From an uncultured Methanosarcinales archaeon (GTDB lineage Archaea; Nanobdellota; Nanobdellia; Woesearchaeales; GW2011-AR9), in NCBI GenBank assembly GCA_964405725.1, contig CAYOOY010000005.1, forward strand, positions 2,636-44,095: DNA of 41,460 nucleotides, read 5' to 3'. The first letter of the stretch is position 1. Each line of letters begins with the position of its first letter. Below the pieces are notes generated by a model that was not told where the DNA came from, did not search any database, and was given only the letters and a program-made list of their open reading frames with translations. The position numbers were made by a program, and so were the translations under genes. Of the stretch, positions 3,848 through 35,543 are shown piece after piece.

Positions 3848-3864
3848 ATAGGTCCTACAAAACC

Positions 3865-3880
3865 CATATTTTTAAATATG
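3865..3880. promoter_or_regulatory. Near-palindromic TATA-like element shared by two divergent genes
   Basis: CATATTTTTAAATATG has 7-bp arms (CATATTT/AAATATG) and sits inside the 54-bp spacer. Its centre is about 25 nt from the ATG at 3847 (minus) and about 30 nt from the ATG at 3902 (plus). That spacing fits archaeal leaderless promoters. Confidence 0.45.
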
Positions 3881-3901
3881 AGTCGTCATTTTTGAGTAGT
3901 C

Positions 3902-7345: not shown

Positions 7346-8197
7346 CTACCTTTTAGAAAATATCATCTCAAGTGCCATTACAACTACCAAACCTGCAACT
7401 ACAAAAGGTATAAAATACCACATAGGAGCTGAAGATTGAGACATGTGAGTCCATGGAATTCTTAGAGACCCTACCATTAATCCAATTAAAAAAGAAAATG
7501 TTAGAAACTTATAATTCTTAAGAAGATAATCGACTAATTTCGAGAATCCAAGGAGTCCAACAAGACATCCTGCAGCGAAAACAGAGAGAATAACAAATTT
7601 CATATTATGGATTGCATTTAAAATGTACTGATATTGGCCAAATAAAACAAGAAGAAACGAACCAGAGATTCCGGGTAGGATCATAGCGCTTATTGCAATG
7701 ACTCCTGAAATAAAAATAATGAAAAGTGAGTGATTAAGTTGAATATTTGCATTTGTTGAGATAACGAATGCAACTAGAAAACCAAATATCATGAATATTG
7801 ACCTTTGAAGATTTATTCTTCCAGTATTTTTGTATAAAAATAATGCTGAAGCAATTATTAATCCTAAAAAAAAAGCAAAGGTATACGCAAGATATGAGGT
7901 TAATAAAAAATCAATCAATCTTGAAAAGACAATAATTGAAGTGAGAATTCCGGCGCCAAGTGGGAGAAAAAGTGCAAAATCATGTGACCGTAGCACAGCA
8001 AATCCCCTTCTCCATTTACCAAGTAAAAATAGCCACAGAAAAGAGAGATCAACTGTTGAAACTGCATGTACCAATCGTTCATAAATTCCCGTAATAAGCG
8101 CAATAGTTCCGCCAGAAACACCTGGTATGACATCAGCGATACCCATACACATCCCTCTCAGGTAAATAAATAAAGCCTGCGTTGTTTTTTTAATCAC
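7346..8197 (-). CDS. DUF368-family integral membrane protein
   Basis: The signature GIADVIPGVSGGTIALITGIYERL is repeated later as LPGISGSFLLVLFGQY, and the protein has multiple hydrophobic helices. Confidence 0.75.
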   Translation of the reverse strand: MIKKTTQALFIYLRGMCMGIADVIPGVSGGTIALITGIYERLVHAVSTVDLSFLWLFLLGKWRRGFAVLRSHDFALFLPLGAGILTSIIVFSRLIDFLLTSYLAYTFAFFLGLIIASALFLYKNTGRINLQRSIFMIFGFLVAFVISTNANIQLNHSLFIIFISGVIAISAMILPGISGSFLLVLFGQYQYILNAIHNMKFVILSVFAAGCLVGLLGFSKLVDYLLKNYKFLTFSFLIGLMVGSLRIPWTHMSQSSAPMWYFIPFVVAGLVVVMALEMIFSKR

Positions 8198-8891: not shown

Positions 8892-8978
8892 TACTATCAC
8901 CTCTTGCCTACAATAAACTCATTGTAGTATATAAATTATTCGGATTATGTTTTTATAGAGATACGTTATATTCATGTT

Positions 8979-9227
8979 ATGATTGAATTTGACATTTCTA
9001 AATGTAAAACAAAGGCTGGCTATTCAGCTAAATTGAAGAAAGGTCGTGTTCTTAATTTGAAAAAGATAATTGCAACATTTAATGTTCTTTTAGAAACACC
9101 CATATTGGTTGTGATTAAAGTTGATGATGTTGAAGTGATTGTTCACAAGCATGGCGAATTATATTTCAAGAATTGTTCTGACACGAATAAAATGAATAAG
9201 ATTTCCAAGGAAGTGTATGCATTGTAG
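8979..9227 (+). CDS. Hypothetical 82-aa protein
   Basis: ORF only. It occupies a gap with no competing ORF, and I recognise no motif. Confidence 0.35.
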   Translation: MIEFDISKCKTKAGYSAKLKKGRVLNLKKIIATFNVLLETPILVVIKVDDVEVIVHKHGELYFKNCSDTNKMNKISKEVYAL

Positions 9228-9355
9228 AAAAAGGGTCCCCTTAGATTATTGTGGGGTGTATTATTTAGATGATTTAGGGGTGTTTTTTGTACGATTGAAA
9301 AAGGGAGATATATTAATAAAAAAAGCAGAGTGTCTTCATGTGGGTGGTTTCCTAG

Positions 9356-10471
9356 TTATTGAATGTTGGATAATTGTTGGTACTCTTTTGCTTTCTCAGT
9401 TTCGCCGATTAATATTGCAATTTCTGAAGCAATTGTATGATTTGTCGTACGTCCATTTGTAAAACATCGTAACACTGGTTCTGCCATCTTTCGTGCTTGA
9501 TCCATCATTCCTGACTCAACGGCATATTTAATACCATCACGAGCATATTGGGTATGGGGATTCCTACGGCAAATATGTGCGTATACATTCACTGTCCTTT
9601 GTGCTTCTCCAAGTTCAAAATCTCTTGACCATTCTGCAATGTGGTGGGGCTCGATTCCTCCATCCAAATCATGGTAGGTCATACAACCCTCAGTTAACGC
9701 TGAATCAACCGCCCATTTATACAATCGAACAGCATCATCTTCTCTTCCCAATACATGGGCACGTTCGGCAGCATATTTGATTGCGTAGAATCGATGAAAA
9801 TCATCTGCCGTTTTTGCATGTTCTTCAGCAACCTGTAATGCCAAAAGAGGATCTCCCATTTCATCAGCAATTTTAACTCCTGCGCTACCCCCATATTGTA
9901 AATTAAGCAGCATTGGACGAGCCGAATCCCAAGAATCACGAGCTGAATCAATATCTCCTACTTTTTGGAAAAATCTAGCAGCTAGTACTGGGTCTCCAAC
10001 TTTTTGATAGGTATCAGCCATTACTACGTGAATGTATCCAGACGGAAATATGGCATCATCAACGCTTGATTCATTAGCTAATAAATTCATTAAATTGCCA
10101 ACTAATTGCCATTTTTGATCTAGGGTATCTCCCCAAGAATACATGCTCCAATTCGTTGGTTTAGGACCTTTATTAAGAGAACAAGCTAGTTTTACTACAT
10201 CATCTATTGCTCTATAAAATGTGGTTATGGCAATTTCTTTTTCACCCAAAATTTGCGCTTTTCGAGCTGAATGATATGTTATGATCTTATGTCTCCCATC
10301 CCATATCCATTTTCCCTTCCTTACACGAGATGAAAGATCAGAGAAATTTCTTATATCAACATCAACAGCATTTTTCACAATATCACGCTTGCGAGTGTCA
10401 CCCATTTCAAAAGCAACTCCGGCTGCATCCCATAACCTTCCCTGACTAATTAACTCTTCTATATCTTTCAT
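9356..10471 (-). CDS. Hypothetical soluble, probably helical-repeat protein
   Basis: Long ORF. I prefer the ATG at 10471 (MKDIEELISQGRL) over the TTG at 10492. TTTTATAAAT lies about 25 nt upstream. There are recurrent A/D/W-rich helix-like segments but no catalytic motif I recognise. Confidence 0.6.
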   Translation of the reverse strand: MKDIEELISQGRLWDAAGVAFEMGDTRKRDIVKNAVDVDIRNFSDLSSRVRKGKWIWDGRHKIITYHSARKAQILGEKEIAITTFYRAIDDVVKLACSLNKGPKPTNWSMYSWGDTLDQKWQLVGNLMNLLANESSVDDAIFPSGYIHVVMADTYQKVGDPVLAARFFQKVGDIDSARDSWDSARPMLLNLQYGGSAGVKIADEMGDPLLALQVAEEHAKTADDFHRFYAIKYAAERAHVLGREDDAVRLYKWAVDSALTEGCMTYHDLDGGIEPHHIAEWSRDFELGEAQRTVNVYAHICRRNPHTQYARDGIKYAVESGMMDQARKMAEPVLRCFTNGRTTNHTIASEIAILIGETEKAKEYQQLSNIQ

Positions 10472-10668
10472 ATACAAAAAAAAAACGCCCAATTTATAAA
10501 ATTTTCGTCTTTTTCAAGTAATAACTTGCAGATTAAAAAACCTCCGTTTATCTATCTTTTTCAATAACTAAACAATCCTCCTCCAGTAACTTGTTCTAAA
10601 CAAAGAGAGATTTATTCAAAAATAGACCTTTTATTTATTAGAATTAGGGCACGTGTGTTGTAAAAAAG

Positions 10669-10796
10669 CGCCCCCGGTCGGATTTTCTCATTATCATTCG
10701 AAACTGTTACCAAATAATAACATTTGAACCGACGATCCGATGGTATCTTTCCTTTAGGATAACAGCCATCTGCTCTAACCACTAAGCCACAGGGGC
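10669..10796 (-). tRNA. tRNA-Asn (anticodon GTT) carrying two introns: about 15 nt at the canonical 37/38 site and 40 nt in the T-loop
   Basis: The minus strand reads GCCCCTG TG GCTT AGTGGTTA GAGC A GATGG CTGTTA(T)[15 nt] CCATC GGATC GTCGG TTCAAAT [40 nt] CCGAC CGGGGGC G. All four stems pair (one G-U in the acceptor stem, one in the D stem). GG is in the D-loop, the T-loop is TTCAAAT, and the discriminator is G. No CCA is encoded. A T-run follows the 3' end (10661-10667). Confidence 0.85.
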
Positions 10797-10819
10797 GCAA
10801 TAAGAAATTTATCTAAATA

Positions 10820-10828
10820 TTTTATAAA
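10820..10828 (-). promoter_or_regulatory. TATA box of the tRNA-Asn gene
   Basis: TTTATAAAA on the minus strand is centred about 28 nt upstream of tRNA position 1 (10796). Confidence 0.55.
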
Positions 10829-10833
10829 CGTTT

Positions 10834-10932
10834 CTACTCTTTAACATCGCCCATTTCAGCGTACTCCTCATGAACTGGATGATCGTCAGATTTTCGTCTC
10901 TTTCTTTTGGATTTTGGTTTTACTTCATTCAT
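10834..10932 (-). CDS. Candidate 32-aa basic/acidic mini-protein
   Basis: My translation gives MNEVKPKSKRKRRKSDDHPVHEEYAEMGDVKE. Its ATG overlaps the TGA of the upstream 84-aa ORF in an ATGA arrangement (10929-10932). Confidence 0.25.
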   Translation of the reverse strand: MNEVKPKSKRKRRKSDDHPVHEEYAEMGDVKE

Positions 10933-11183
10933 TGCTTAGCATATTTTTTTTGCATTTTCTTATGATAAGAACAAAACACAATCCCTTTACTTGCTTTTCG
11001 AGAGCACCTAACACAAATTCCTGCTTTCTTTTTTTTCCAATAATCCGATCTTCTTTCATTATTAAGACGATCTTTATTTTGATGATAGAATTTTAAAAAA
11101 CGATTTGGATAATTTCCATTTTTGTATACCTTGCGCTCTTTTGTTTTTTTGGTCCTAATCTTGCGAAGTATTTTTCGTATCAT
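10929..11183 (-). CDS. Small, very basic Cys/His-containing protein, possibly a zinc ribbon
   Basis: 84 aa and Lys/Arg-rich, with CVRCSRKASKGIVFCSYH (a CxxC...CxxH pattern). Confidence 0.45.
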   Translation of the reverse strand: MIRKILRKIRTKKTKERKVYKNGNYPNRFLKFYHQNKDRLNNERRSDYWKKKKAGICVRCSRKASKGIVFCSYHKKMQKKYAKQ

Positions 11184-11263
11184 GTAATCCTCTTTTTTTG
11201 CACTTTTCTTTAAAGTAGGTACTTTCTTCTGCTATTTTAATCTTTTGGATTTTGATTAGTTTT

Positions 11264-11788
11264 ATGTCTTTGTTTCAAAAGAGACGACACAAATTATTTA
11301 AACGTACGAAATGTTCTTGCTTTATGGAAGAAGAGGTGTTATTGAATTTACGTCAAACACGTAAAGCATTTATTATTGAATATGGATGCGCGTTACTTAT
11401 AGCTGTTCTTTTATTTCTGATATACTTAACAAAGAATCCAATTATGATGATATATTACATTGGTTTCGTCTTGATTGCATTGTGTATAGCTTCAGCAGAA
11501 CTTCATAGAGCAATGACAAAATATACAATGATGGAAAGTAAGTTGGTAATTATGCATGGTATTTTTAAGCAAACCAAAAAAACAGTATATTTTCATCCTC
11601 TTGGTTTTGCAACTCACTTAAATGTGAAACAAACTCGCCTACAAAGATTACTAAAATATGGAACCATTTATCTTAAAGAAGGAACAGAAGGATTTCAGAT
11701 AAAAGATGTTAATAATCCTCACAAGGTTCTGGATAAAATTGAAGAAAGGGTAGAAGCAAACAAGCACCCTCATAAAAAGAAAAAATGA
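11264..11788 (+). CDS. Membrane protein with a bacterial-type PH (bPH_2/YdbS-like) domain
   Basis: Two TM helices (LLIAVLLFLIYL, IYYIGFVLIALCIASA) are followed by a segment typical of bPH_2: KLVIMHGIFKQTKKTVYFHPLG...IYLKEG. I prefer the ATG at 11264 over the TTG at 11252. Confidence 0.5.
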   Translation: MSLFQKRRHKLFKRTKCSCFMEEEVLLNLRQTRKAFIIEYGCALLIAVLLFLIYLTKNPIMMIYYIGFVLIALCIASAELHRAMTKYTMMESKLVIMHGIFKQTKKTVYFHPLGFATHLNVKQTRLQRLLKYGTIYLKEGTEGFQIKDVNNPHKVLDKIEERVEANKHPHKKKK

Positions 11789-12249
11789 GTGAAATTAGAT
11801 TTTTTTGATTCGAATTCTTTCATTAAATCACCGCCATCCATTTCAAGTGAATATGTGATATTGTCAAGTTTTTTAGATGCTATAAATGAAATAAATTTTT
11901 TCTTCTTTTTAGTATCCCATTTATCAAATGCATGTGCAGTTTCACACAAATAATTAACATCGCAATGGTTCTCACGTAAATCATCCTCCTTATGCCGATC
12001 TGGATGCAGTGGACAAATCATACACCCGCTATCATTAACTAAATTTCGACAAACACCAGATCGCAAATCATGAGATTTTCGTCGGTCTCTGAATTTTTTA
12101 AATTCTTCAATTGTTTTTGGATTCGCGTTTTTATATTCCAATGAGTTTTTATGCACTGCTTGCTTGATTGCTTGTTTTGATACAAATGTGTTGCCGCAGC
12201 ACCCCATGCAACCGCCATTTAATTGACATAAAATACTAGAAGTGCTCAT
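11770..12249 (-). CDS. Cys-rich putative zinc/iron-chelating protein (YkgJ/UPF0153-like)
   Basis: CQLNGGCMGCCGN near the N-terminus and a second cluster CRNLVNDSGCMICPLHP. The start overlaps the rdgB stop (TAATG). Confidence 0.45.
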   Translation of the reverse strand: MSTSSILCQLNGGCMGCCGNTFVSKQAIKQAVHKNSLEYKNANPKTIEEFKKFRDRRKSHDLRSGVCRNLVNDSGCMICPLHPDRHKEDDLRENHCDVNYLCETAHAFDKWDTKKKKKFISFIASKKLDNITYSLEMDGGDLMKEFESKKSNFTHFFFL

Positions 12250-12788
12250 TAGTGTTTCTCCAAAAAGGCGTTTAATTTTTCCATCGCCTTATTTCGATGA
12301 CTTATTTTGTTTTTTTCGTTTAATGGCATTTTAGCAAAGCATACATCACAGCCAACTGGTGTAAATATTGGATCCCAACCAAATCCACCACCACCAGAAG
12401 GTTTAGTTATTGTGCCATCTAATTCACCTTCAAAAAAATGAGTGTGATTACCATCTGAATATCCAATAACTGTTTTTGCGATAGCTTTTTGAGAAGGGTA
12501 TTTTTGCAATAGATTATAGATCCCTTCTGCGCTAAGAGATCCAAGGAAAAATTTGATTAACGGACCAGGAAAACCATTTAATGCTTCAAAGTACAACGAA
12601 GTATCCTCACAAAAAAATTCTTTTCCAGGATTTAATTTGCATGCTTCTTCTAATTTGGCTTTAATGATCTCATGTGGATCCATTGATTGTATTTCTACCA
12701 GATCTGCTTTATACTGTGTGATGTGAGGAATTATTAATTGTGCTTCCTCAAATTTGTGTTTGTTTCCGGTAATGAAATATAGAGTCAT
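12249..12788 (-). CDS. rdgB: Non-canonical purine NTP pyrophosphatase (HAM1/RdgB family)
   Basis: Family motifs are present: YFITGNKHKFEE, GFPGPLIKFF, GFGWDPIF, SHRNKA. Confidence 0.85.
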   Translation of the reverse strand: MTLYFITGNKHKFEEAQLIIPHITQYKADLVEIQSMDPHEIIKAKLEEACKLNPGKEFFCEDTSLYFEALNGFPGPLIKFFLGSLSAEGIYNLLQKYPSQKAIAKTVIGYSDGNHTHFFEGELDGTITKPSGGGGFGWDPIFTPVGCDVCFAKMPLNEKNKISHRNKAMEKLNAFLEKH

Positions 12789-12822
12789 GGTAGTGCAAAG
12801 AAAGAATGAGATTTATAAAAGT

Positions 12823-14205
12823 TTACAGAGAAATGTACTGGTTTCGTTTTGGTCCAACACCAATTCCTTTTATTGGAACACCTACATAATCACTAATGAA
12901 TTGTATTAGTTCCTTAGCTTCGCCTGGTAACTTTTTACCATCTCTTATCTTAGAGATATCATGAGGAAGATGAGGAAAATATTCAATCACAGGTTTTGCT
13001 TCATAAAGAGTTGAAGTACTTGATGGCATTTTATCTGTACTGATTCCATTTACCTTGTACGCTACAACCATTGGAATACCGGGCAGTGATGTTTGTGAAT
13101 AATCGAAAAGGCAATCAAATTTTGTTACATATAATTCGTCTACCCCATTTAAGTCAATCATATGTTTTAATTGTACTAAATCAAAACTTCCTATACGACG
13201 AGGTCTTTTGGTGGTGGCGCCATATTCATCGCGCAGCATACGTAAACCAACACCTACATTAAATAGATCTTCTGATTGAAGCATTGATTTTCTATCAAAC
13301 ATTTTTTGCTCAACTTCTTTTTTGTGTTTATATCCCCCCTCAGCCATGCAATGTTCTTCTGATTTTCGTCCCCCAAATTCACTTACAAATGGACCCCACC
13401 CTACACGAGACATAATTGCTTTGCCAACCCCAAACGTTTTTGTATGGTATTTGACTGGTAAATCACCACCAACATACGCATTCGCAGCAATAGGTCTTGA
13501 AGACGTAACAAAAGGAGCAGTTCCATGCGTTTTATCAATTGCACATCCATTCGCAGATTCAAAGAAAACGTCTTTTCCAGATTTTACTTCATGAAGAAGA
13601 AAAAGGGGATCACACATGAATTGCTCCAATCTTCTAGCAGCTGCATCAAAATTTGTAGCGACTTGAGAAACGTTAACACTTAGTTTATATTTTTGAACAA
13701 CGTCTTCTAAATTATCACGCATTGAATCAAAGTAACTTGGATCAGAAAGATATCCTGCAAGTTGAATGTTTTTAATTCGATCACCAACCATACGTGTTGC
13801 TTGATCTGCATAGCAAGGTCCTCCGCCTTTTCCAGTAGTTCCTACTCCTTTTCCATGAATACCATCAAGAAAAAGATGGTGTGGTTGAATAAGAGAAGTT
13901 TTTGGATGCATGAATAATCGATCGCGTACATTAATTCCTATACGTTCAATTCCTTCAACTTCTTCATAAAATGAGTCTGGGTTTACAACACATCCTGTTC
14001 CAACATAAAGACCAGCTTTGTGTTTTATGCCAGATGGAACAGCATGTGTGATTATGTGAAAATCCCCTACTTCTAAATGATGGCCTGCATTATCAAAACC
14101 ATTATATCGGGCCCAATAATCAGCGTCAACTACTTTATCAAAAATTCGAATTTTGCCTTCGTCTCCATATTGAAGACCAACGCCAACAGTAGATTTTCCG
14201 TGCAT
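12823..14205 (-). CDS. purA: Adenylosuccinate synthetase, divergent and long form
   Basis: GLQYGDEGKIR (P-loop-like GDEGKGK region), NAGHH, PSGI and GTTGKGGGPCYADQ match PurA signature regions. Confidence 0.8.
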   Translation of the reverse strand: MHGKSTVGVGLQYGDEGKIRIFDKVVDADYWARYNGFDNAGHHLEVGDFHIITHAVPSGIKHKAGLYVGTGCVVNPDSFYEEVEGIERIGINVRDRLFMHPKTSLIQPHHLFLDGIHGKGVGTTGKGGGPCYADQATRMVGDRIKNIQLAGYLSDPSYFDSMRDNLEDVVQKYKLSVNVSQVATNFDAAARRLEQFMCDPLFLLHEVKSGKDVFFESANGCAIDKTHGTAPFVTSSRPIAANAYVGGDLPVKYHTKTFGVGKAIMSRVGWGPFVSEFGGRKSEEHCMAEGGYKHKKEVEQKMFDRKSMLQSEDLFNVGVGLRMLRDEYGATTKRPRRIGSFDLVQLKHMIDLNGVDELYVTKFDCLFDYSQTSLPGIPMVVAYKVNGISTDKMPSSTSTLYEAKPVIEYFPHLPHDISKIRDGKKLPGEAKELIQFISDYVGVPIKGIGVGPKRNQYISL

Positions 14206-26659: not shown

Positions 26660-28480
26660 ATGGACGATCAATTAGTTATTAAGCCAATACTTGAACAGAT
26701 TTTAGAGAGAGAATTACCACTTCATACATTAGAATCTCCCTTTAAGAGGTATGAACGTCTTTTTACTACATATTATCACCTTTTTGCGGGTCCACTTTCA
26801 TTAAGAATAACAGATTGTGATGATTCAAATACATTTGAAACTCTTCGTTTTAATAAATTAGGTCATGTGGTTGAGCTTACAGCAACGGTAGATGAAAGAT
26901 ACCATATTAAATCATACCCCTCGCTGAATGCTCTAAAAATACCGGCTTTAGATTGCTTTGATTTTCCCAATTTAACATCGTCTACTTTATTACCAGACCA
27001 TATGACAAATCAAGATATTACTACGTTGATATTCGAAATAATTAATTCATGGATTCCTACACCAAAAGAAATAATAAATGATGTCAGAGCAAGACATGTT
27101 TACAGAGGTACGCCATTAATCACTTATCCTCCGATCTATAGAGAATTACAAAAGTATGTTGATAATCCAGCATTACCACCACAAACGTTTATTTGTGATG
27201 GTTGGAAATATGAAATTTCAGCAGATAAAGTTGATACACTATTTGTTGGCCATAACGTTCCTATTCCTAACACAGCAAGAATTATCTCTCCTCCAATAGA
27301 ACCAAATATGTATGGTGATTCAGCTGATTTTCCTAACTCATTTTCTCAAGATCGAGATGGCCTATTTTCTCATATTAGTACAGGAATTAGGTTCACGTCT
27401 AGTGGTCGCGAATTAAGATGCTTTTCCCCCACCTTAGCTAATGGAAAAACTCAAATTGCAACCAGACTATTGGAATGCCAAGGTATTATAATAAATCCTG
27501 CGGATACAGCTCAAAAAGACTTTGCTTTAAAAAAAAACCCTTCAAATCGTGCTATAAAAGGCTTTGATTATTTCGATACTCGATATCTGGATGAAGTTGT
27601 GCGTACACTTGATTCATTTTCTTCTGATTTCCAATCTGATTCCCTCTATGAGAAACTAGTCAAAGTACTTCCGGAATCTGCACTTGAAGGAAATGAAGAA
27701 CTATGGAAAACGTTGATAGATATATCTACTAATAATACTGTAAGTTATAATGAATCATTTTTTGTTACTGATCGTTCAAAGGATAAATGGTTACTTAAAA
27801 TTACCAATAATAAACAGAAAGCAGAGATTGAAGCAGCAGCTAATTACTATCTTTCAAGTGAATTAGATTTTATAGTTCCTGGAAAATCACCAATACCCAT
27901 AGAAGGAAATAACTATTATATTACAATGCAAAAAGTAATTGATGATCCTACCCCGCGATCTTTAGATTACTGGATTGGGGCGTATGCAGCATTTCATCAA
28001 AATGTCGAATCAATATTTAACAAGTATAATGTTGACTTATCAACATATCAGGTTAAAGGAGATACTGCTCAATTACGAGAACATCTAAGAATGCCAATTG
28101 ATAGAACGTTGCTAAATGATGCAATAGATTATCTTAGAGAGTCTCCTCTTATCTGCCCAATTCAAGGAGATGCAAAAGAGGATAATCGATATGGAAGATT
28201 CATGGTAGATTTGGAAATGATGAGTTATGGCCATCCTGCACAAGATCTTGCACTTTTATTCTCGAGTTATAATGTGCCAAAGGAACAATGGGGATTAAAA
28301 CTTAACCAGTATGCGGCTTGTCGAAACTTTACTGAACAAGAACGAAAAGATCTTCACGATGGAATGATATATGCCTCACAATATCATCTTGTAAAAGAAT
28401 TAAATGGAATAGAAAGTAGAATAAGTACACCTACAACAAGATTCCAGCAAGAAAAATTACAACAATTCTTAGCTGCATAA
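26660..28480 (+). CDS. Large protein with a C-terminal APH/choline-kinase-like (protein-kinase-fold) domain
   Basis: Catalytic-loop-like ICPIQGDAKEDNRYG (HGDxxxxN type with Q in place of H) and Mg-loop-like VDLEMMSYGHPAQDLALL. The N-terminal ~380 aa is unassigned. ATTTATAAAG lies about 25 nt upstream of the ATG. Confidence 0.55.
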   Translation: MDDQLVIKPILEQILERELPLHTLESPFKRYERLFTTYYHLFAGPLSLRITDCDDSNTFETLRFNKLGHVVELTATVDERYHIKSYPSLNALKIPALDCFDFPNLTSSTLLPDHMTNQDITTLIFEIINSWIPTPKEIINDVRARHVYRGTPLITYPPIYRELQKYVDNPALPPQTFICDGWKYEISADKVDTLFVGHNVPIPNTARIISPPIEPNMYGDSADFPNSFSQDRDGLFSHISTGIRFTSSGRELRCFSPTLANGKTQIATRLLECQGIIINPADTAQKDFALKKNPSNRAIKGFDYFDTRYLDEVVRTLDSFSSDFQSDSLYEKLVKVLPESALEGNEELWKTLIDISTNNTVSYNESFFVTDRSKDKWLLKITNNKQKAEIEAAANYYLSSELDFIVPGKSPIPIEGNNYYITMQKVIDDPTPRSLDYWIGAYAAFHQNVESIFNKYNVDLSTYQVKGDTAQLREHLRMPIDRTLLNDAIDYLRESPLICPIQGDAKEDNRYGRFMVDLEMMSYGHPAQDLALLFSSYNVPKEQWGLKLNQYAACRNFTEQERKDLHDGMIYASQYHLVKELNGIESRISTPTTRFQQEKLQQFLAA

Positions 28481-29347
28481 TATTCCAATTCTTGAATTAA
28501 GTTGTGTTAATAATTTACTAAGGCGATAGCAATGTATTTTCAAAAGAGGATTAAATTTGACAGTTTTTCCTGCATAATCTAATCTTATTTTGTGTATTTT
28601 TTTCCATGATTTTTCCATCATAGCATAGTCTTTTTTAAGATACACTTTATACAATTCTTCAAAAAATACTCTCTTTGTAGAAAAATTAGTAAGGTCTTTG
28701 ATGTTATGTTCTACAATGTGTTCTGCAGTATTATAAAATTCTGCGCTTATTTTTTCAAGAATAGTAATTATTTCGTAATAATTATATGTGTTGTCTTCAC
28801 CAAATTTAGTCATATAAATTGAACGCAAAATATGATCTCTAAGTTTCAACATTGTTCCCTTTGCAACTGATTTAATTTGAGATAGATCTGCTTTTTTTCC
28901 TTGTTCTTCAACTTGTTTTCCAAGAACATTTACACTTTGAAACATACGAATGATTAATTTTTCAATTTCTTCTTGATTTATTGTTAAAAATGATTTAATC
29001 ACAATAGCATTTTTCTTTTGTTCCACAATTTCTAATCCTGTAAAGCTTGAGATTATTTTATTTACATCATTCATATCTGGTGCAATTTTATAGGTTAATG
29101 TAATCTTTGTATATCCTGATTTATACAAAGATGAGATAAGGCTTCGTAAATGAGAAGAAGTATAATTATCAATTGATATTTTCTTTTCTTTAACTGCTTC
29201 TGCAGCGTTTTTTGCAATAATTACTTGATTTTCAGTTTCTTCTACTTCAACTTCATCACCATTCTTTAAATTATGACGAACAGCCCACTTTCTAGGTAAT
29301 GAGATAGTATATGTTGAATTCCCCTGAATTACAATTCTTCGTTTCAT
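28469..29347 (-). CDS. AbrB/SpoVT-domain plus PhoU-like helical domain regulator (archaeal PhoU-type)
   Basis: The N-terminus MKRRIVIQGNSTYTISLPRKWAVRHNLKNGDEVEVEE is a typical SpoVT/AbrB swapped hairpin. The remainder is helical and of the length expected for a PhoU repeat pair. Confidence 0.6.
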   Translation of the reverse strand: MKRRIVIQGNSTYTISLPRKWAVRHNLKNGDEVEVEETENQVIIAKNAAEAVKEKKISIDNYTSSHLRSLISSLYKSGYTKITLTYKIAPDMNDVNKIISSFTGLEIVEQKKNAIVIKSFLTINQEEIEKLIIRMFQSVNVLGKQVEEQGKKADLSQIKSVAKGTMLKLRDHILRSIYMTKFGEDNTYNYYEIITILEKISAEFYNTAEHIVEHNIKDLTNFSTKRVFFEELYKVYLKKDYAMMEKSWKKIHKIRLDYAGKTVKFNPLLKIHCYRLSKLLTQLNSRIGILCS

Positions 29348-29355
29348 AAGGTCTA

Positions 29356-29410
29356 TTTTTCTCTATTTTTTATAAACTTATTGGAAATTATATAGAAATA
29401 TAGAGAAAAA
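29356..29410. promoter_or_regulatory. Perfect 11-bp inverted repeat in the divergent regulator/operon spacer (candidate operator)
   Basis: TTTTTCTCTAT (29356-29366) and ATAGAGAAAAA (29400-29410) are exact reverse complements separated by 33 nt that contain TTTTTATAAAC and TATATAGAAATATAG. Confidence 0.6.
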
Positions 29411-29467
29411 GTTATATCTTATTTTGTTCTCACTCGATAGTACTAGTTGTGTGTTTGGAGAAATATA

Positions 29468-30085
29468 ATGAAATATACTCAAAATGTCAAAACAAGGATT
29501 TTAGGAACCACATTAGCGCTTTATGCTGCCCTAGGTGGATGTACAACTAATCACACCCAAATTGACTACAATAATGCAAAAGTACAATCTAAGATGCCAA
29601 GATTCGAAGATGGATTTTTACAAAATCTTGAAAAGATGTGTGAAGATTTAGACATGGACTGCATGGGTTTACTAAGTATTATGGATTATGAAACAGCAGG
29701 AACATTTAGTCCAAGAATCAAAAATCCACGAGGAACTGCAACTGGTTTGATTCAATTTACCAGTGCAACTGCTCGAGATTTAGGAACTTCAACTAAAGAA
29801 CTTCGCTCTATGACTCAAAATGAACAACTTGAATATGTTCGAAAATATTTTGAACAACATCAAGATAAAGCAGATTATTCAAATCCACGAGATATTGCTC
29901 TTTCTGTATTTTATCCAAAAGCAGTTGGTAAATCTGAGAACTTTACTATCACGAGAAAAGGGAAAAGAGCATATTGGCAAAATCGTGGTTTAGATAGACA
30001 TCCAAAAGATGGTAAAATTACTGCAAAAGAATATGTTCAGCCCGCTCTTCGAAGAGGATACTTTAGAGGAGGAAAAAAGAAATGA
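29468..30085 (+). CDS. Lipobox protein with a lytic-transglycosylase / lysozyme-like domain
   Basis: I prefer the ATG at 29468 (GGAG 8 nt upstream). Signal plus lipobox is TLALYAALGGC. The SLT-like pattern is MDYETAGTFSPRIKNPRGTATGLIQFTSATARDLG (E-[ST]...GL[MI]Q...TA). Confidence 0.6.
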   Translation: MKYTQNVKTRILGTTLALYAALGGCTTNHTQIDYNNAKVQSKMPRFEDGFLQNLEKMCEDLDMDCMGLLSIMDYETAGTFSPRIKNPRGTATGLIQFTSATARDLGTSTKELRSMTQNEQLEYVRKYFEQHQDKADYSNPRDIALSVFYPKAVGKSENFTITRKGKRAYWQNRGLDRHPKDGKITAKEYVQPALRRGYFRGGKKK

Positions 30086-30450
30086 ATAAAGGAAAAACAA
30101 AAAACACACAATACAAAACAAATCTTGGATCAAGTGTACTTACTCTCGCACTAGGTTTAGGAATTGGACAGGGATGTAAAGAATATCAATCCCCTGTTAA
30201 GTCCCTTGAAGAAAGAACAACAATAGTAACCGGATTAGGGGGGTCACCAGTTGTGTCAGCAGATGATTGTTCCAAAAAATACGCTCGTTGCCTTCAATTG
30301 TGTAAGGAATTACCTGCCTATAGACTTATGATAAGGTCAGATCAAGAAATAAAAAATAAAAAAGAATTTTGTGAATATATGTGTACTCAAACCATGAAAA
30401 AATATGATCTTTGTCAAGAGGATACGACACAGTTAGAGGAGGAAAAATGA
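30082..30450 (+). CDS. Small Cys-rich lipobox protein
   Basis: Signal plus lipobox SSVLTLALGLGIGQGC, six further Cys, and a C-terminal MKKYDLC motif. It has an ATGA overlap with the upstream gene. Confidence 0.6.
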   Translation: MNKGKTKNTQYKTNLGSSVLTLALGLGIGQGCKEYQSPVKSLEERTTIVTGLGGSPVVSADDCSKKYARCLQLCKELPAYRLMIRSDQEIKNKKEFCEYMCTQTMKKYDLCQEDTTQLEEEK

Positions 30451-30821
30451 ATCAATTAGAAAAATTAATTGCAAAAATTAGTCTTGGAATGTATCTAACT
30501 CTTGGACCAATAGGCTGTGATTCAAAGAATCCCTTTGCAAACCCTGTACGAGAGTATAATGGGAAAACAACATATCAAATAGAATTAGTCTCAGAGCCAT
30601 CTACACAATTTCCAACAGAAGAGCATGTTGCTCGTGAATTTAACAACCAAGGGTTTCCATGCGATAAAGCAACTGCAAATGATGTAATGTTTGCAGAGCC
30701 AGTTTGCTCTTTATATTCAGGGCCTCTTCCAAAAGCAACAGTACGTGTGAAATGTGATGCTAATACGCTTACATGTCCAGAATTTATGAAAAAATATGAT
30801 ATTTGTCCATTCGAGAAATAA
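30447..30821 (+). CDS. Small Cys-containing lipobox protein
   Basis: I prefer the ATG at 30447 (GGAGGAAAA immediately upstream, ATGA overlap). Signal plus lipobox is LGMYLTLGPIGC, and the C-terminal MKKYDIC motif is shared with the previous gene. Confidence 0.55.
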   Translation: MNQLEKLIAKISLGMYLTLGPIGCDSKNPFANPVREYNGKTTYQIELVSEPSTQFPTEEHVAREFNNQGFPCDKATANDVMFAEPVCSLYSGPLPKATVRVKCDANTLTCPEFMKKYDICPFEK

Positions 30822-30865
30822 GAAAAATTATGTGGTGTGAATAATAAACAGGAGAAAAATAGAAA

Positions 30866-31999
30866 ATGAATAAGGAAAAAATTAAACAAACATTTACACG
30901 ATATAGAACACATATTGGAGCAAGTGTACTTGCTCTCGCCTTAGGATTAGGAATTGGCCATGGATGTAGTGAAGATCCACAATGTTATCAACCAAGCCCA
31001 AAACCAAAAGTTACTGCGACAGAAAATCCTCTTCCTCGAGCAGCACCAACAAGAAAAACAACTCTTGCACCAGGTCCAGGATCACTTCCGAATCCAATTC
31101 AGGGATATTTATGTGAAGTTATTGCAGATACTAAATCTGTTCCAGTAGCTTCAGAAAAACCACTTACTCTTACCCCAATGAATCCGGGAAGGAAAGCAAA
31201 ACGAGATCACGATGGTAAAAAGAATTCCTTTGAAAACAATGTATTGGAAGCATATTTTGCAACAAATTCATGGAAATGTTATAAGAATGATATAACTGAT
31301 GTTGCAAAACTAGCAAAACAATTAGCACCAGGAACAACCGTTATTGTTGAAGGAAATGCTGATCACCGTGGATCTGAAAAATGGAATGATGAACTTGGAA
31401 CACATCGCGCCCAAGGTATTGAAGGGATTTTACTTCGTAATAACCCAACACTAAAAATTCAAACCACTTCGTATGGTGAAGAAAAAGCAACAAGAACAGA
31501 TAAAAAAGATCTGTATTTGGATAGAAAAGTATCTATTATTCCTAATAGAAGTGTTGTTAAGCAAGCGTTGGACAAATTACCTGCAGATGTCTACTTAGTG
31601 GATCAAAGTCATTCTATGATTAACCCAACACCCGCTGGCACATCACGATGGGAAGAGATTCAAAACTATTCTTTCCCAAAAGGTAAAAAGGTGTACACAT
31701 TTTCAGATACATCTCGAACATGTGGAACAAAACTTTCAGGTGAAAAACCAGTTGGTGGAACTCCAATGTATGATTCATTAAGTGAATTAATAAACCTAAC
31801 TCCTTTCGGAAAAACGATTACTATTTTAACAGATGGCGAAGATTCTTCAAGTCGTTATGCAACAGCAGACAAGGTAGTATCGCAAGCAACGGCAAAAAAT
31901 ATTTCCATTAATGTTGTAGATCTGTCTGGGGTACCACAAAATAGTGCATTAGGGATTGCAACACAAACTGGCGGAAAAACGTACCGGATAAGTAAGTAA
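30866..31999 (+). CDS. Lipobox protein fusing an OmpA C-terminal-like (peptidoglycan-binding) domain to a vWA domain
   Basis: Signal plus lipobox ASVLALALGLGIGHGC, then a Pro-rich linker. OmpA-like core: TVIVEGNADHRGSEKWNDELGTHRAQGIEGILL...YGEEKA...DRKVSII. vWA MIDAS residues: YLVDQSHSM, GGTPMYDSL, ITILTDGEDSS. Confidence 0.7.
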   Translation: MNKEKIKQTFTRYRTHIGASVLALALGLGIGHGCSEDPQCYQPSPKPKVTATENPLPRAAPTRKTTLAPGPGSLPNPIQGYLCEVIADTKSVPVASEKPLTLTPMNPGRKAKRDHDGKKNSFENNVLEAYFATNSWKCYKNDITDVAKLAKQLAPGTTVIVEGNADHRGSEKWNDELGTHRAQGIEGILLRNNPTLKIQTTSYGEEKATRTDKKDLYLDRKVSIIPNRSVVKQALDKLPADVYLVDQSHSMINPTPAGTSRWEEIQNYSFPKGKKVYTFSDTSRTCGTKLSGEKPVGGTPMYDSLSELINLTPFGKTITILTDGEDSSSRYATADKVVSQATAKNISINVVDLSGVPQNSALGIATQTGGKTYRISK

Positions 32000-32560
32000 A
32001 TGAATTTTAAGAGTGTACTTGTTGGAGCAGCACTTGTTATGGGATTAAGTGGATGTGATAAAGAATATCGTCCACTTAACCCTTTAATTCAAGAGAGAAT
32101 TGTAACTCATGAAAATCGAGAAGGAGGGATCGCAATTTATCAATTCCATACAAGAAGAGATCCTACTATCAAGGGTGCCACATTTATTAAACAATATAAA
32201 GTGGACCCTTATGGCCAAAGAACGTTAGCGGGACACTACCAAGATTTAAACAAAAATGTGAAAGTTGATAGAGGGGATTTTTGTTTTGTTACAGAAGGTG
32301 AAACACCCCACGTCCCTCTGGAAGATAGATTTGTGTGTTCAACTCATTTGCTAAATACAATTCACACACGGCATCCTGTAGCGTATGATGAAAAAGAAAG
32401 TGATTCCTATTATTTAGATGAGAATAAGAAACTAAAAACCTATGCTCGAGATGGAATTTGGTTCCTTCAAAACAGTCCGCATACACCTCAACAATCAATT
32501 AAAAAGGCCCAAGAGTGTATCACTCTTTGTCCAACATACTTATTGGAGACAAAAGGATAA
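32000..32560 (+). CDS. Lipobox protein, function unknown
   Basis: Signal plus lipobox GAALVMGLSGC. The ATG directly abuts the upstream TAA. Confidence 0.55.
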   Translation: MNFKSVLVGAALVMGLSGCDKEYRPLNPLIQERIVTHENREGGIAIYQFHTRRDPTIKGATFIKQYKVDPYGQRTLAGHYQDLNKNVKVDRGDFCFVTEGETPHVPLEDRFVCSTHLLNTIHTRHPVAYDEKESDSYYLDENKKLKTYARDGIWFLQNSPHTPQQSIKKAQECITLCPTYLLETKG

Positions 32561-32648: not shown

Positions 32649-33647
32649 ATGAATTTAGATGTTGAGCTGTTACGTGGGGATCCTACTTTCTATCATGGTC
32701 CCATGAATTGCGGTAAAACACGAGACGCATCTGGAGATCTTGAGCAAATTGCCCATGCTGGATTTAATGTTATATCATACCAGAATGCAGCAAATGATCG
32801 CGATGGGGCTAATATAGTTGTAGACGGCCAGCACATTAAAGGAGCAGCTGTAGTAGCAAAATCAATAGATGAGGTAAAATCAGACTTCATTGCCAGACGA
32901 CAAGCAATTTTTTCTCGTAAGATTAAATTTGAAGGCCAAGATGGTTTTTTTGAATATAAAAACATACGTCATCGTAAATTCAAAGAATTAGTTGGAGTTC
33001 ATATTGACGAGATGAATTTATTTTGCACAACACCTGAAGAAACGAAAAAGGTGATTGATTTTATTCATTGGGGAAGGGAAGAAAATATTGTTCAAATATA
33101 TTCAGGGTTACTCTTTGATTTTCGTCACCAAATATTTGGTTATGTTGATTCACTTTTACCTTATGTAAATTCGGTTCAAATCAAAGCTAAGTGCAAATCA
33201 GATGTGCAAAGAAAGCAATGTGGGAAATCTGCAATCCATTCTCAGCGATTGTGGTCGCGAAAGTTCGCGGAAGATCAAGGTCTTGGATCAGTTCTTGATG
33301 AGTTTGAAATATATGATTTCTGGGATAAAAATCACCAATTGCAATCTGAAAATTATATTGCTGCTCCTTATTGGGACAAGACCTTGCGCATTGAAGAAGC
33401 AAAAGATGGACGTAATGTCTATTTACCCGTATGTTCAGATTGTGCTTCACTTCCACACAAAGACGAAGTATTCACAGTGTATGAATCTCTACAAAAAAAA
33501 GAATTCGATCCGCAAGCGATTTCTGATTCCCTTAATAATAAAATACTTCATTTTTTACTTGATGAAGAATGGATACATGAAAAGAAGAAAGGAAAATTAG
33601 ATGCAACTCCACTTTATAGAACTAAAATGGGTGTCTATGTCCCATAA
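32649..33647 (+). CDS. TK1-type thymidine-kinase-like protein with large insertions and a C-terminal extension
   Basis: P-loop GPMNCGKT, NDRDG, Walker B-like HIDEMNLF, GLLFDFRHQIF, and zinc-ribbon Cys pairs KCKSDVQRKQCGKSAIHSQR and LPVCSDC. At 332 aa it is much longer than the ~200 aa usual for TK1. Confidence 0.6.
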   Translation: MNLDVELLRGDPTFYHGPMNCGKTRDASGDLEQIAHAGFNVISYQNAANDRDGANIVVDGQHIKGAAVVAKSIDEVKSDFIARRQAIFSRKIKFEGQDGFFEYKNIRHRKFKELVGVHIDEMNLFCTTPEETKKVIDFIHWGREENIVQIYSGLLFDFRHQIFGYVDSLLPYVNSVQIKAKCKSDVQRKQCGKSAIHSQRLWSRKFAEDQGLGSVLDEFEIYDFWDKNHQLQSENYIAAPYWDKTLRIEEAKDGRNVYLPVCSDCASLPHKDEVFTVYESLQKKEFDPQAISDSLNNKILHFLLDEEWIHEKKKGKLDATPLYRTKMGVYVP

Positions 33648-33689: not shown

Positions 33690-35543
33690 ATGTATTCGGC
33701 ATATAGTAAAAAAGATCAAGAACTATTTAAGAGAGCAACAGCACTTTCAAAAGTACACCTCTCTTCAATTCCTCGTTTAGAGGGTGATTCATTTTTTGAT
33801 CACAATGTACGTGTTGGTGAAATTCTAGCGTTACATACCGCAGAACCAGAAATTGTAATTGCCGGATTATTACATGGGATTCTGAATCATGTTGAAGCTA
33901 GCACAATATCAAAAGAATTTGGAACAGCCGTTCTTACCATATTACGTGAAGTTGAATCATTAAAAAGAGTTAAGGCAAAAAACACATCTTTGGAATCAGA
34001 ATCATTACGTAAAATAATTATCACCACTCTCAAAGATGTCAGAGTAATTATCATTAAACTAGCAGGTAAATTGGATAATTTGCGAACAATTCATGTGTTT
34101 TCTGCTAAGCGTCAAAAAGAAATCTGTGAAGAAGTAATTGACATCTATGCGCCTCTTGCGTATAGATTAGGTCTTGATAAAATGAAAACGCAACTTGAAG
34201 ATTTGGCGTTCAAAGCTCTTAATCCACGTAAGTATAAAGAGATCAATGTGTATCTTGAAGAAAGTAGACAACAAAGAGAAGAGAATGTAGAAAAAGCAAT
34301 TAGTCTCATTAAACGCATTTCAAAAAATAAAGTAGATATTGTGAAAATAAAAGGGAGGCCAAAGCACATTTATAGTATTTACAAAAAAATAACTAAACGT
34401 AAAGTCCCTTTACACGAACAATTTGATTTACTTGGTATTCGAGCTCTTTGTAAAACAATTAAAGATTGTTACACGCTTCTGGGGATACTACATGAAGAAT
34501 TTGAACCATGCGAAGGAAGATTGAAAGATTATATTGCAAATCCCAAACCTAATTTTTATCGTTCTATACATACAGCAGTTACACTGTCTAATGGGAAAAT
34601 TGCCGAGATCCAAATTCGAACTCCAGAAATGGATGAATTTGCTGAAGAGGGAGTTGCTGCTCATTGGCGCTATAAAGGTGTTAAATCAGACCAATTATTT
34701 GAGAAAAAAATGAGTTGGCTCAAATCTGTTCTTGATTTACAAAAGAATGAATTTTTAGATTCCGTTAAAGTAGATTTGTTTGGTGATAAGATATATTGCT
34801 ATACCCCAAAAGGAGATGTAAAGGAATTACCTCTTGGTGCGACCATACTTGATTTTGCTTATTTAGTTCATGAACAAATCGGATCCAAATGTGTGGGTGG
34901 AAGAATCAATGGAAAATTTGTTCGCTTAAAAGAAAAATTAACTTCGGGTGATGTAGTTGAGATTATAACAAATAAAAATCAACGCCCTAGGCGTGGCTGG
35001 ATCAAAATAGTAACATCAGCTAAAGCTCGCCAGAAAATTCGTAAGATGGTACGACAATATGATGCCTTGCCTTCGCTTCATTATCGAACATACAAACCAA
35101 CCATCAAAGAAGATTTAGGGGTATTGGTTCATTCAGAAGAATTTCCTAAAGCTATGTGTGTTTTAGCTAAATGTTGTTCGCCAGTTCCTATAGAAGAAAT
35201 TGCTGGAATAATGACAAAGCGACGCATGATATCGGTCCATTCAACAGAATGTAGGGAAGCGATAAAAGAAGAAAATAGATGGATTCCTGTTGAGTGGAAA
35301 ACTGTGTTCAATCAAAAAATTAGTTTTATGGTTGAAGCTGATGAAAGATCAGGATTACTTGCCGATTTACTTAATACAATAGCACGTTCAGGCTTTGAAA
35401 TTAAGGAAGCCAAAGGTAAATTGCGAGGAAAAGAAACAGCTTTGTGTAATTTTATTGTTATTCCGCGAGACATGGATGAATTACTTGGTATGATTAAACG
35501 TGTTAAGAAAGTTAGAGGAGTTAGACGGCTGTATTTTGATTAG
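33690..35543 (+). CDS. Long RelA/SpoT homolog: degenerate HD domain, (p)ppGpp synthetase, TGS, ACT
   Basis: HD region FFDHNVRVGEIL...AGLLHGILNHVEAS (HG where HD is expected, NH where ED is expected). Synthetase motifs: GRPKHIYSIYKK, DLLGIRALC, RLKDYIANPKPNFYRSIHT, EIQIRTPEMDEFAEEGVAAHWRYK. TGS: IYCYTPKGDVKELPLGATILDFAY. The C-terminus is ACT-like. Confidence 0.85.
   Translation: MYSAYSKKDQELFKRATALSKVHLSSIPRLEGDSFFDHNVRVGEILALHTAEPEIVIAGLLHGILNHVEASTISKEFGTAVLTILREVESLKRVKAKNTSLESESLRKIIITTLKDVRVIIIKLAGKLDNLRTIHVFSAKRQKEICEEVIDIYAPLAYRLGLDKMKTQLEDLAFKALNPRKYKEINVYLEESRQQREENVEKAISLIKRISKNKVDIVKIKGRPKHIYSIYKKITKRKVPLHEQFDLLGIRALCKTIKDCYTLLGILHEEFEPCEGRLKDYIANPKPNFYRSIHTAVTLSNGKIAEIQIRTPEMDEFAEEGVAAHWRYKGVKSDQLFEKKMSWLKSVLDLQKNEFLDSVKVDLFGDKIYCYTPKGDVKELPLGATILDFAYLVHEQIGSKCVGGRINGKFVRLKEKLTSGDVVEIITNKNQRPRRGWIKIVTSAKARQKIRKMVRQYDALPSLHYRTYKPTIKEDLGVLVHSEEFPKAMCVLAKCCSPVPIEEIAGIMTKRRMISVHSTECREAIKEENRWIPVEWKTVFNQKISFMVEADERSGLLADLLNTIARSGFEIKEAKGKLRGKETALCNFIVIPRDMDELLGMIKRVKKVRGVRRLYFD

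Follow-up and report, generated by a model that had tools for sequence, protein, structure and literature searches.

Why should an archaeon carry, in one gene cluster, a module that cuts peptidoglycan and another that binds it? The question is raised by five genes (P1 to P5) in a 41,460-nt stretch of contig CAYOOY010000005.1 (assembly GCA_964405725.1), hereafter the window, which was deposited as DNA of an uncultured Methanosarcinales archaeon. P1 has a lytic transglycosylase (LT) domain, and P4 is a fusion of an OmpA-like domain and a von Willebrand factor A (vWA) domain. An earlier note on this DNA took the cluster for a surface apparatus directed against the wall of a bacterial partner or host. 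Based on sequence comparisons, we consider it fairly probable that the operon is a surface module of a DPANN archaeon acting on bacterial murein. The murein-directed part of the earlier proposal is strengthened by the gene neighbourhoods described below, while an adhesive role, a locally opened sacculus and the partner or host are what we infer from the domains.

The five open reading frames (ORFs) are co-directional and tightly packed on the + strand, from 29447 or 29468 to 32560. Direct reading of the sequence shows ATGA overlaps at the P1/P2 and P2/P3 junctions (30082-30085 and 30447-30450), a 44-nt spacer between P3 and P4 (30822-30865) and a TAA-ATG abutment of P4 and P5 (31997-32002), all as the earlier note had placed them. 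The GGAGG-type sites that it described in front of the internal genes are also present, as GGAGG 5' of P2 and P3 and as CAGGAG 5' of P4. The start that it gave for P1, a TTG at 29447 (212 aa), has to be revised: because a GGAG sits 8 nt before the ATG at 29468, this ATG (205 aa) is more likely, and gene callers are divided between both forms in identical contigs.

The assignment of P1 as a lytic transglycosylase is solid as far as sequence comparison goes. Residues 53-188 of P1 match the PDB entry 9udh_A, named 'lytic transglycosidase', with an E value of 3e-29, and the phage internal protein 9k2v_E is matched at 3e-7; our literature search found no publication for 9udh. Among the PHROG families, 4928 is matched at 1e-36 and 196 (baseplate hub) at 2e-30. 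P1 also matches 293 phage records at ~40% identity, including the lytic enzyme of Flavobacterium phage FLiP. The catalytic Glu75 lies in the E-T motif (YET) and precedes an ATGLIQF motif, and Glu75, A91, G93-L94-I95-Q96-F97, Y127 and other residues are invariant in 21 aligned homologues, so that the SLT/lysozyme-like pattern recognized earlier in P1 holds. The archaeal transglycosylases form one group at 48-62% identity, and the bacterial and phage relatives are at most 45% identical. These comparisons suggest that P1 belongs to the virion-associated, wall-piercing type of lytic transglycosylase and is probably active. At the C-terminal end of the LT domain (residues ~175-190, 29990-30040), P1 and its homologues share a conserved LD-x-N-x-DG-x-IT-x-x-E stretch similar to the calcium loop of an EF-hand. 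This loop is longer by one inserted residue in the archaeal clade, and one bacterial homologue is named 'EF-hand domain-containing protein' in UniRef.

The OmpA-like domain of P4 is matched by PF00691 at E=2.9e-8 (residues 130-214), scoring 34.4 bits against a gathering threshold of 27.2, and by the Pal equivalog TIGR02802 at 8e-11. It also matches the PDB entry of Pal P6 (2aiz, 7e-7) and other solved Pal/OmpA domains, and Asp166 and Arg181 of P4 align with the Asp and Arg of P6. The counterparts of these two residues contact the stem-peptide diaminopimelate in the Acinetobacter baumannii OmpA-pentapeptide and Haemophilus influenzae Pal complexes. R181 is invariant across the OmpA-vWA family and D166 is conserved in at least 90% of it, and the D and R positions read earlier in P4 are thus well founded. 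An AlphaFold2 model of P4, built from a five-sequence alignment, has a mean predicted local distance difference test score (pLDDT) of 69. Residues 120-377 are folded in this model, pLDDT is below 50 at residues 1-79 and 91-115, and a short strand is formed by residues 82-86. In the OmpA part, the ten-residue pLDDT means are 75-92 (residues 121-200) and 63-87 (residues 201-230), and the model has the beta-alpha-beta-alpha-beta-beta fold of the Pal/OmpA C-terminal domains. The best Foldseek matches are OmpA, Pal and MotB domains (3td3, 5u1h, 1oap and 4g4w among them) with target TM-scores of 0.7-0.78. The evidence suggests that the OmpA-like domain of P4 would bind murein. The tether in front of it holds a family motif, YLCEV, in which L82, C83 and V85 are invariant among the closest homologues.

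Strands and helices alternate in the vWA region of the P4 model, and a lower-ranked Foldseek match is a TFIIH chain (8ebs_E, 1.1e-4). All 40 of the aligned family members match the OmpA model, 27 match PF00092 (best 4.9e-8) and nine match VWA_3, and a search with the P4 family profile finds P0273, a bona fide multi-vWA protein, at 1.5e-13. The columns of the metal-ion-dependent adhesion site (MIDAS) D246, S250, T299 and D323 are at least 90% conserved across the 40 sequences. In an exhaustive search, the OmpA-vWA family (~300-430 aa) comprises 318 cluster representatives at E<=1e-3, of which 112 reach E<=1e-10. The family probably has bacterial, Pal-like roots, because the gene of at least one member, P0001 (locus L055), comes after a PD40/TolB-like gene.

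All five products begin with a basic n-region and a hydrophobic stretch followed by a cysteine, as described in the earlier note, which called all five lipobox proteins. We applied a PROSITE PS51257-type rule to the 239 Met-initiated ORF candidates of the window. Three products, P1 (C25), P2 (C32) and P5 (C19), pass this strict rule, and they are the sole real ORFs of the window that do so. The other match is an antisense ORF inside P3/P4 (30575-30913, - strand, 112 aa), which satisfies the regular expression by chance and is almost certainly not a gene. The chance that three lipobox matches among ~45 genes would all fall in one five-gene block is ~7e-4, and the enrichment in the operon is therefore not a chance effect. 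The lipobox-type cysteine is also retained in the orthologues on other archaeal contigs. Predicted lipoproteins and the lipidation enzyme AliA have been reported to be prevalent in DPANN (PMC12462473), so lipobox proteins are not odd here in themselves. Lipid anchoring is thus predicted for P1, P2 and P5 and, probably, for P3 and P4.

The identity of the host is indicated by the neighbouring genes. The RelA/SpoT gene 1.1 kb 3' of the operon retrieves 48 loci among the GTDB species representatives (43 of them at 55-64% identity), and these loci are labelled Woesearchaeota, Nanoarchaeota or Nanoarchaeia, apart from one 'uncultured Methanosarcinales' series that clearly groups with them. The next gene encodes an NSUN-type RNA methyltransferase that is 66-75% identical in 21 of the 48 loci, and the best PDB match of the arginyl-tRNA synthetase of the window is 2zue, which we take to be the archaeal Pyrococcus enzyme. 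An identical P4 protein is found on 12 contigs of ENA, JGI and Logan assemblies from several samples, one of them a 662-kb scaffold, with the same flanks throughout. Because of these matches and shared flanks, the host is identified from sequence as a DPANN archaeon, Woesearchaeota-like, and contamination or chimerism is very unlikely. A bacterial genome and an assembly chimera were both rejected. The archaeal genome read in the earlier note is supported by RelA/SpoT and NSUN matches to ~45 Woesearchaeota/Nanoarchaeota metagenome-assembled genomes (MAGs). That note made its finding depend on lysozyme-like and OmpA-like folds and on an organism that is not a peptidoglycan-bearing bacterium; both folds were matched, and the organism is archaeal. 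tRNA and Rfam scans detected no rRNA, tRNA or Rfam feature in the window, and it has no ribosomal proteins.

The bacterial or phage ancestry of the domains and the lack of the operon in syntenic relatives could also be explained by an artefact or an inert passenger, that is, by contamination, a chimera, or a decaying and functionless bacterial or phage cassette. We regard this as most improbable. The identical locus, bordered by the same archaeal genes, is present in independent assemblies of several samples, the 662-kb scaffold among them; the GC content of the operon (0.33-0.37) is inside the range of the window; and no flanking direct repeats, tRNA genes or integrase were found around the operon in the window. 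The orthologues on other archaeal contigs are 44-62% identical and keep the catalytic Glu, the Asp/Arg pair, the MIDAS and the lipobox Cys, a pattern that points to long-term purifying selection. Searches of viral contigs and phage genomes yielded no relatives of P4 or P5, and an origin of the whole cluster as a prophage or virus was rejected.

The gene neighbourhoods of the relatives add a second line of evidence (Table 1). The OmpA-vWA gene adjoins a transglycosylase gene in five independent loci, and the trio of P4, P1 and P5 is found in three lineages. Across the loci, the hydrolases beside OmpA-vWA belong to four catalytic classes (LT, GH25, M23 and Amidase_3), and these neighbourhoods with hydrolases of differing catalytic class strengthen the murein-directed interpretation of the operon. 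The transglycosylase occurs alone in the archaeal contigs L059, L060, L071, L072 and L073, and a DUF5715 gene beside the P4-like gene in L063 is not assignable. The comparisons indicate that the cassette is conserved and under constraint in several archaeal lineages, with domains of bacterial or phage origin. The alternative offered in the earlier note, a horizontally acquired bacterial cassette, is thus right about the origin of the domains, but it does not exclude a surface apparatus. Conservation of the five-gene order, which that note asked about, was not seen in the 48 syntenic loci, where the operon is missing; the trio is present, rearranged, in other archaeal contigs. In L064, two further genes lie 3' of the LT/OmpA-vWA pair, one for a MORN-repeat lipoprotein of 220 aa (8910-9572) and one for a repeat-rich surface protein of 1257 aa that ends in a membrane anchor (10249-14022); their products may be part of the same surface apparatus in that lineage.

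Table 1. Features of the operon region (window positions) and composition of related archaeal loci.
Feature or locus	Positions	Strand	Description
AbrB/SpoVT-domain regulator	28469..29347	-	292 aa, divergent from the operon
Divergent intergenic region	29348..29467		120 bp, AT-rich, several TATA-like elements
P1	29468..30085	+	Lipobox protein (C25), predicted LT domain of phage-virion type
P2	30082..30450	+	Small lipobox protein, 122 aa, C32, 7 Cys; lineage-specific accessory
P3	30447..30821	+	Small secreted Cys-rich protein, 124 aa, 6 Cys, signal peptide ending PIGC; lineage-specific accessory
P4, N-terminal part	30866..31222	+	Signal peptide ending GHGC (C34), Pro-rich tether of ~80 residues, predicted to be disordered
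P4, OmpA-like domain	31223..31549	+	Residues ~120-228; Asp166 and Arg181 in ADHRGS...THRA
P4, vWA domain	31568..31999	+	Residues ~235-377; MIDAS D246-Q-S248-H-S250, T299, D323
P5	32000..32560	+	Lipobox protein, 186 aa, C19; conserved third member of the core trio
L057/L058			Markers L37e, LSM, Translin; divergent AbrB, P4-like, LT (61% to P1), 95-aa protein, GH25 muramidase, P5-like (54%)
L074			P4-like (44%), LT (61%), P5-like (53%); Peptidase_M23 two genes away, 3743-4678 (-)
L064			Divergent AbrB, LT (56%), OmpA-vWA, MORN-repeat lipoprotein, 1257-aa surface protein
L061			Markers uS12, uS7, Kae1; divergent AbrB, OmpA-vWA only
L067			TFB immediately upstream; OmpA-vWA, then convergent Amidase_3 and SLT lipoproteins, 8909-10632 (-)

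The same neighbourhoods bear on the possibility that the domains have been repurposed to act on the archaeon's own envelope polymer or on that of an archaeal host (a non-murein glycan or a pseudomurein-like polymer), in which case this would be an ordinary envelope-remodelling operon. All products are apparently exported and membrane-anchored, as for envelope maintenance; OmpA-like domains are able to fix machines to the wall of their own cell; a PD40 (TolB-like) gene lies upstream of the bacterial family member in L055; and the content of wall-synthesis genes was read for the window only. However, the co-occurring GH25, M23, Amidase_3 and SLT enzymes all have murein as their known substrate, and DPANN are not known to contain murein. 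Lysozyme-type enzymes do not cleave pseudomurein, because its beta-1,3 N-acetyltalosaminuronic acid bonds resist them. In addition, archaeal peptidoglycan hydrolases are almost absent from the clades that make pseudomurein (Strock et al., PMC12352652), and the patchy distribution of the operon, missing from the 48 syntenic relatives, argues against a core envelope function. We therefore judge repurposing to be improbable.

The module also appears to have its own regulator. The divergently encoded protein upstream of P1 matches the Pfam family MazE_antitoxin/AbrB at 1.2e-9 (residues 8-46), and no family match was obtained for its C-terminal two thirds; a 'PhoU-like' label considered for this part was rejected as unconfirmed. 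A homologue divergently adjoins the OmpA-vWA cluster in all four archaeal loci that include the upstream flank (the window, L057, L064 and L061), with intergenic gaps of 111-292 bp, and there is only one other copy in 671 kb of Woesearchaeal loci. The AbrB-domain protein is thus likely to be the transcriptional regulator of the module, and the intergenic region is the presumed promoter/operator of the regulator and the operon. A bacterial sigma-70 scan of this region gave nothing better than shuffled sequence, and a bacterial promoter and terminator scan was uninformative. A kinase-like protein of 600-710 aa is encoded convergently with the AbrB gene, with a slight overlap, in the window (26660-28480, + strand), L057 (710-2842) and L019 (16719-18725). 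The copy in the window has a weak APH match, and that in L019 has an HRDLNPSN catalytic loop and a hydrophobic, possibly membrane-spanning segment; the gene divergent from the regulator in L019 is another one, encoding a secreted protein of 235 aa. The kinase-like protein and AbrB may form a sensor-regulator pair upstream of secreted cargo genes.

P5 was called an orphan in the earlier note, which has to be corrected, because the cluster ends with an orthologue (53-54% identity) in both L057/L058 and L074. Neither P5 nor its three-sequence profile has a PDB match, and a single-sequence model of P5 is unusable (pLDDT 33). P2 and P3 are small and Cys-rich, as stated earlier, with seven and six cysteines. 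They share just an 11-residue C-terminal motif, C-x3-MKKYD[LI]C. The searches made gave no relatives of either protein, and P2 has no tblastn match in any related locus. Some repeats connect these genes at the DNA level. The regions encoding the ribosome-binding sites and signal peptides of P2 and P4 (30072-30187 and 30862-30977, repeat D1) are 73% identical over 116 nt; a 22-nt stretch encoding MKKYD[LI]C recurs at 95% identity where P2 and P3 end (30394-30415 and 30786-30807, their 3' ends); and the P1/P2 and P2/P3 junctions have a common 19-nt stretch (30063-30081 and 30433-30451). From its sequence, P2 looks like a recombinant with a P4-type 5' end and a P3-type 3' end.

We propose the following mechanism for the module. 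All five products would be exported, and P1, P2, P5 and probably P3 and P4 would be tethered to the outer face of the membrane through a lipidated Cys. P4 would extend on a disordered stalk of ~80 residues, and its OmpA-like domain would grip the stem peptide of exposed peptidoglycan through the Asp/Arg pair. The vWA domain with its MIDAS could make a second, metal-dependent contact, either with a bacterial surface ligand or with a component of the module such as P5. P1 would cut the bonds between N-acetylmuramic acid and N-acetylglucosamine (MurNAc-GlcNAc) beside the anchored site, resulting in a local breach or loosening of the sacculus; enzymes of the P1 type are used by phage virions to pierce walls from outside. 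Expression would be controlled by the divergent AbrB-domain regulator. In sister lineages, a core of OmpA-vWA, transglycosylase and P5 is combined with GH25 muramidase, M23 endopeptidase or Amidase_3, which may fit differing wall chemistries. P5 would be a conserved partner in the module, and P2 and P3 would be lineage-specific accessories. The sequence comparisons show which domains are present, that the host is archaeal, that catalytic, binding and MIDAS residues are conserved and that the neighbourhood recurs. Lipidation, peptidoglycan binding, catalysis and contact dependence are what we infer from these domains, as is the purpose (attachment, feeding or killing); host attachment, predation, antagonism or competition, and scavenging of debris are alike compatible with the sequence.

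Scavenging deserves separate consideration, because it shares all the domain evidence for murein engagement and would need no living host or prey: the module would capture and degrade free murein fragments or dead sacculi, from which a metabolically reduced archaeon would gain amino sugars and amino acids. DPANN have genomes of poor metabolic content and are predicted scavengers (PMC10936187), tethered enzymes with a binding protein resemble surface polysaccharide-utilisation systems, and an Asp/Glu racemase is encoded near the transglycosylase of L072 (6095-6793, - strand), a transglycosylase-only locus. On the other hand, no transporter, anhydro-MurNAc kinase, NagZ-type or amidase-type catabolic gene was found in or beside the operon, in the window and in the related loci, and the class of the transglycosylase is the virion-associated, wall-piercing one, not that of recycling enzymes. 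A pure scavenging function is disfavoured for these two reasons; in addition, a vWA adhesion domain is not obviously required for debris uptake. We consider scavenging unlikely, though less so than repurposing.

Several observations weigh against a module acting on bacterial murein. In P1, the Pfam scores are under the gathering thresholds (SLT, 16.1 bits; Phage_lysozyme2, 18.8 bits), although PF01464 is carried by many of its homologues. The vWA domain with a complete MIDAS claimed earlier for P4 stands as far as the residues and the 27 homologues are concerned, but P4 itself has no Pfam vWA match at E<0.1. P3 (PIGC, Pro at -3) and P4 (GHGC, His at -2) each fail the strict lipobox rule by one position, and the lipobox claim for all five products is reduced accordingly to three passes and two near-misses. 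No Pfam, NCBIfam or PHROG family is matched by P2, P3 or P5, which are without an assignable role. None of the 48 Woesearchaeal loci with the RelA-NSUN(-TK) synteny, where TK is a thymidine-kinase-like gene, has the operon, which thus does not count as a core trait of the order. A Gram-negative outer membrane would shield murein from a tethered enzyme and OmpA-like domain, and no component for breaching an outer membrane was identified in the operon. Finally, murein engagement is deduced from sequence and predicted structure, and the genes were read in 41 kb of a 662-kb scaffold, so that an endogenous murein substrate is formally possible.

A more specific version of the murein-directed module is tentative and, in our view, has a clearly smaller chance of being correct. 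The OmpA-vWA lipoprotein could be the constant target-recognition subunit of an unrecognised, AbrB-type-regulated DPANN apparatus for engaging bacteria, in which interchangeable hydrolase cassettes (LT, GH25, M23 and Amidase_3) set the wall types that can be breached. If true, this apparatus would be the first defined molecular machinery for archaeal episymbiosis or predation on bacteria and would provide a handle for identifying the hosts of marine Woesearchaeota.

Other genes of the window also deserve mention. RelA/SpoT (33690-35543, + strand) is of the full-length bacterial type with HD, synthetase, TGS and ACT domains (TIGR00691, 542 bits). Long RelA/SpoT homologues are considered rare in archaea. 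Its counterparts in 43 of the 48 Woesearchaeota/Nanoarchaeota loci (L007-L054) are 55-64% identical to it, usually with the same NSUN methyltransferase gene next in order, and it looks like a stably inherited stringent-response gene of the order. Records labelled 'uncultured Methanosarcinales archaeon' (L008, L011-L013, L015, L016, L020, L022 and others) have RelA and NSUN proteins 56-75% identical to those of the window and of named Woesearchaeota MAGs, and the submitted Methanosarcinales labels look wrong for those loci. The thymidine-kinase-like protein (32649-33647, + strand) has 332 aa and matches the Pfam family in two stretches (6.8e-10); typical thymidine kinases have ~190 aa. Proteins 33-43% identical to it are encoded beside RelA in six relatives. 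A DUF368/PopT-type polyprenyl-phosphate transporter (7346-8197, - strand; NF052564, 1.5e-70) is not evidence for murein. In bacteria, DUF368/PopT proteins recycle the undecaprenyl-phosphate carrier for wall synthesis, and the protein of the window presumably serves dolichol-type glycosylation.

The case for DPANN archaea that live on bacteria, instead of on other archaea, has so far been argued from isolated transglycosylase genes alone. A conserved, regulated operon that pairs a predicted murein-binding adhesin with predicted murein cutters makes a stronger case than one gene by itself. As a reagent, recombinant P4 could probe the wall chemotypes, and hence the bacteria, that it binds, and P1 and its GH25, M23 and amidase partners could be used for lysis spectra. 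The OmpA-vWA family, with its 112 cluster representatives at E<=1e-10, is itself uncharacterised, and because one-polypeptide surveys miss split systems, the anti-bacterial capacity of archaea may be underestimated.

The earlier note knew of no described archaeal system with this composition, a statement of novelty that is too broad. Murein transglycosylases of Woesearchaeota and Pacearchaeota have been published and proposed to target bacterial walls, including the large murein-like LT proteins of fam00969 (Castelle et al. 2021, PMC8204110), GH23 (Vigneron et al. 2022, PMC9723730) and those of Zhang et al. 2024 (PMC10936187). Strock et al. 2025 (PMC12352652) reported modular peptidoglycan hydrolases in about 5% of archaeal genomes, with Nanoarchaeota prominent among them, and showed experimentally that two haloarchaeal enzymes kill a bacterium. 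Full-text literature searches that combined OmpA or von Willebrand with Woesearchaeota or DPANN returned nothing relevant, and OmpA-like domains are not mentioned in Strock et al. (PMC12352652). The general idea is thus already published, and what appears to be new, with no description found, is this multi-gene composition: a split architecture centred on OmpA-vWA.

Compared with the published Woesearchaeota/Pacearchaeota transglycosylases, the module shares the archaeal group, the enzyme class and the hypothesis of attachment to, or attack on, bacterial walls. Those enzymes are single extracellular proteins of up to ~3000 aa, whereas P1 is a 205-aa lipobox protein in a multi-gene context, and its closest relatives outside archaea are phage virion proteins. 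With the phage virion transglycosylases (PHROG 196, the FLiP lytic enzyme, 9k2v and 9udh), P1 has in common a homologous domain (~40-50% identity) with the invariant Glu and GLIQF, and the phage enzymes serve to penetrate the murein of the target cell locally and from the outside. In phages, however, the domain lies within a tail or ejection protein, while P1 is free-standing, has a signal peptide and lipobox, and is encoded on an archaeal chromosome. P4 resembles the bacterial Pal/OmpA lipoproteins (Tol-Pal, MotB and YfiB) in its N-terminal lipobox-type Cys (a near-miss under the strict rule), flexible linker, Asp/Arg pair and fold (TM-score 0.7-0.78). It differs from them in its fused C-terminal vWA domain with MIDAS, in having murein hydrolases as partners, and in its archaeal host, which should have no murein; no TolB, TolA, TolQ or TolR was found in the window, which places P4 outside the Tol-Pal system. 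The closest functional parallel is the class of hydrolases surveyed by Strock et al. 2025 (PMC12352652), who cite the GH25 muramidase transfer of Metcalf et al. 2014. Like that class, the module consists of secreted murein cutters of bacterial or phage ancestry in wall-less archaea, with a patchy distribution and horizontal transfer, and related loci encode a GH25 muramidase (L057) and an M23 peptidase (L074). Unlike that class, the operon has an AbrB-domain regulator and three products that pass the lipobox rule. The survey requires a catalytic and a wall-binding domain in one polypeptide, whereas here the two are split between P1, which has a catalytic domain only, and P4; the module would thus work like the Strock et al. 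class while falling outside its definition.

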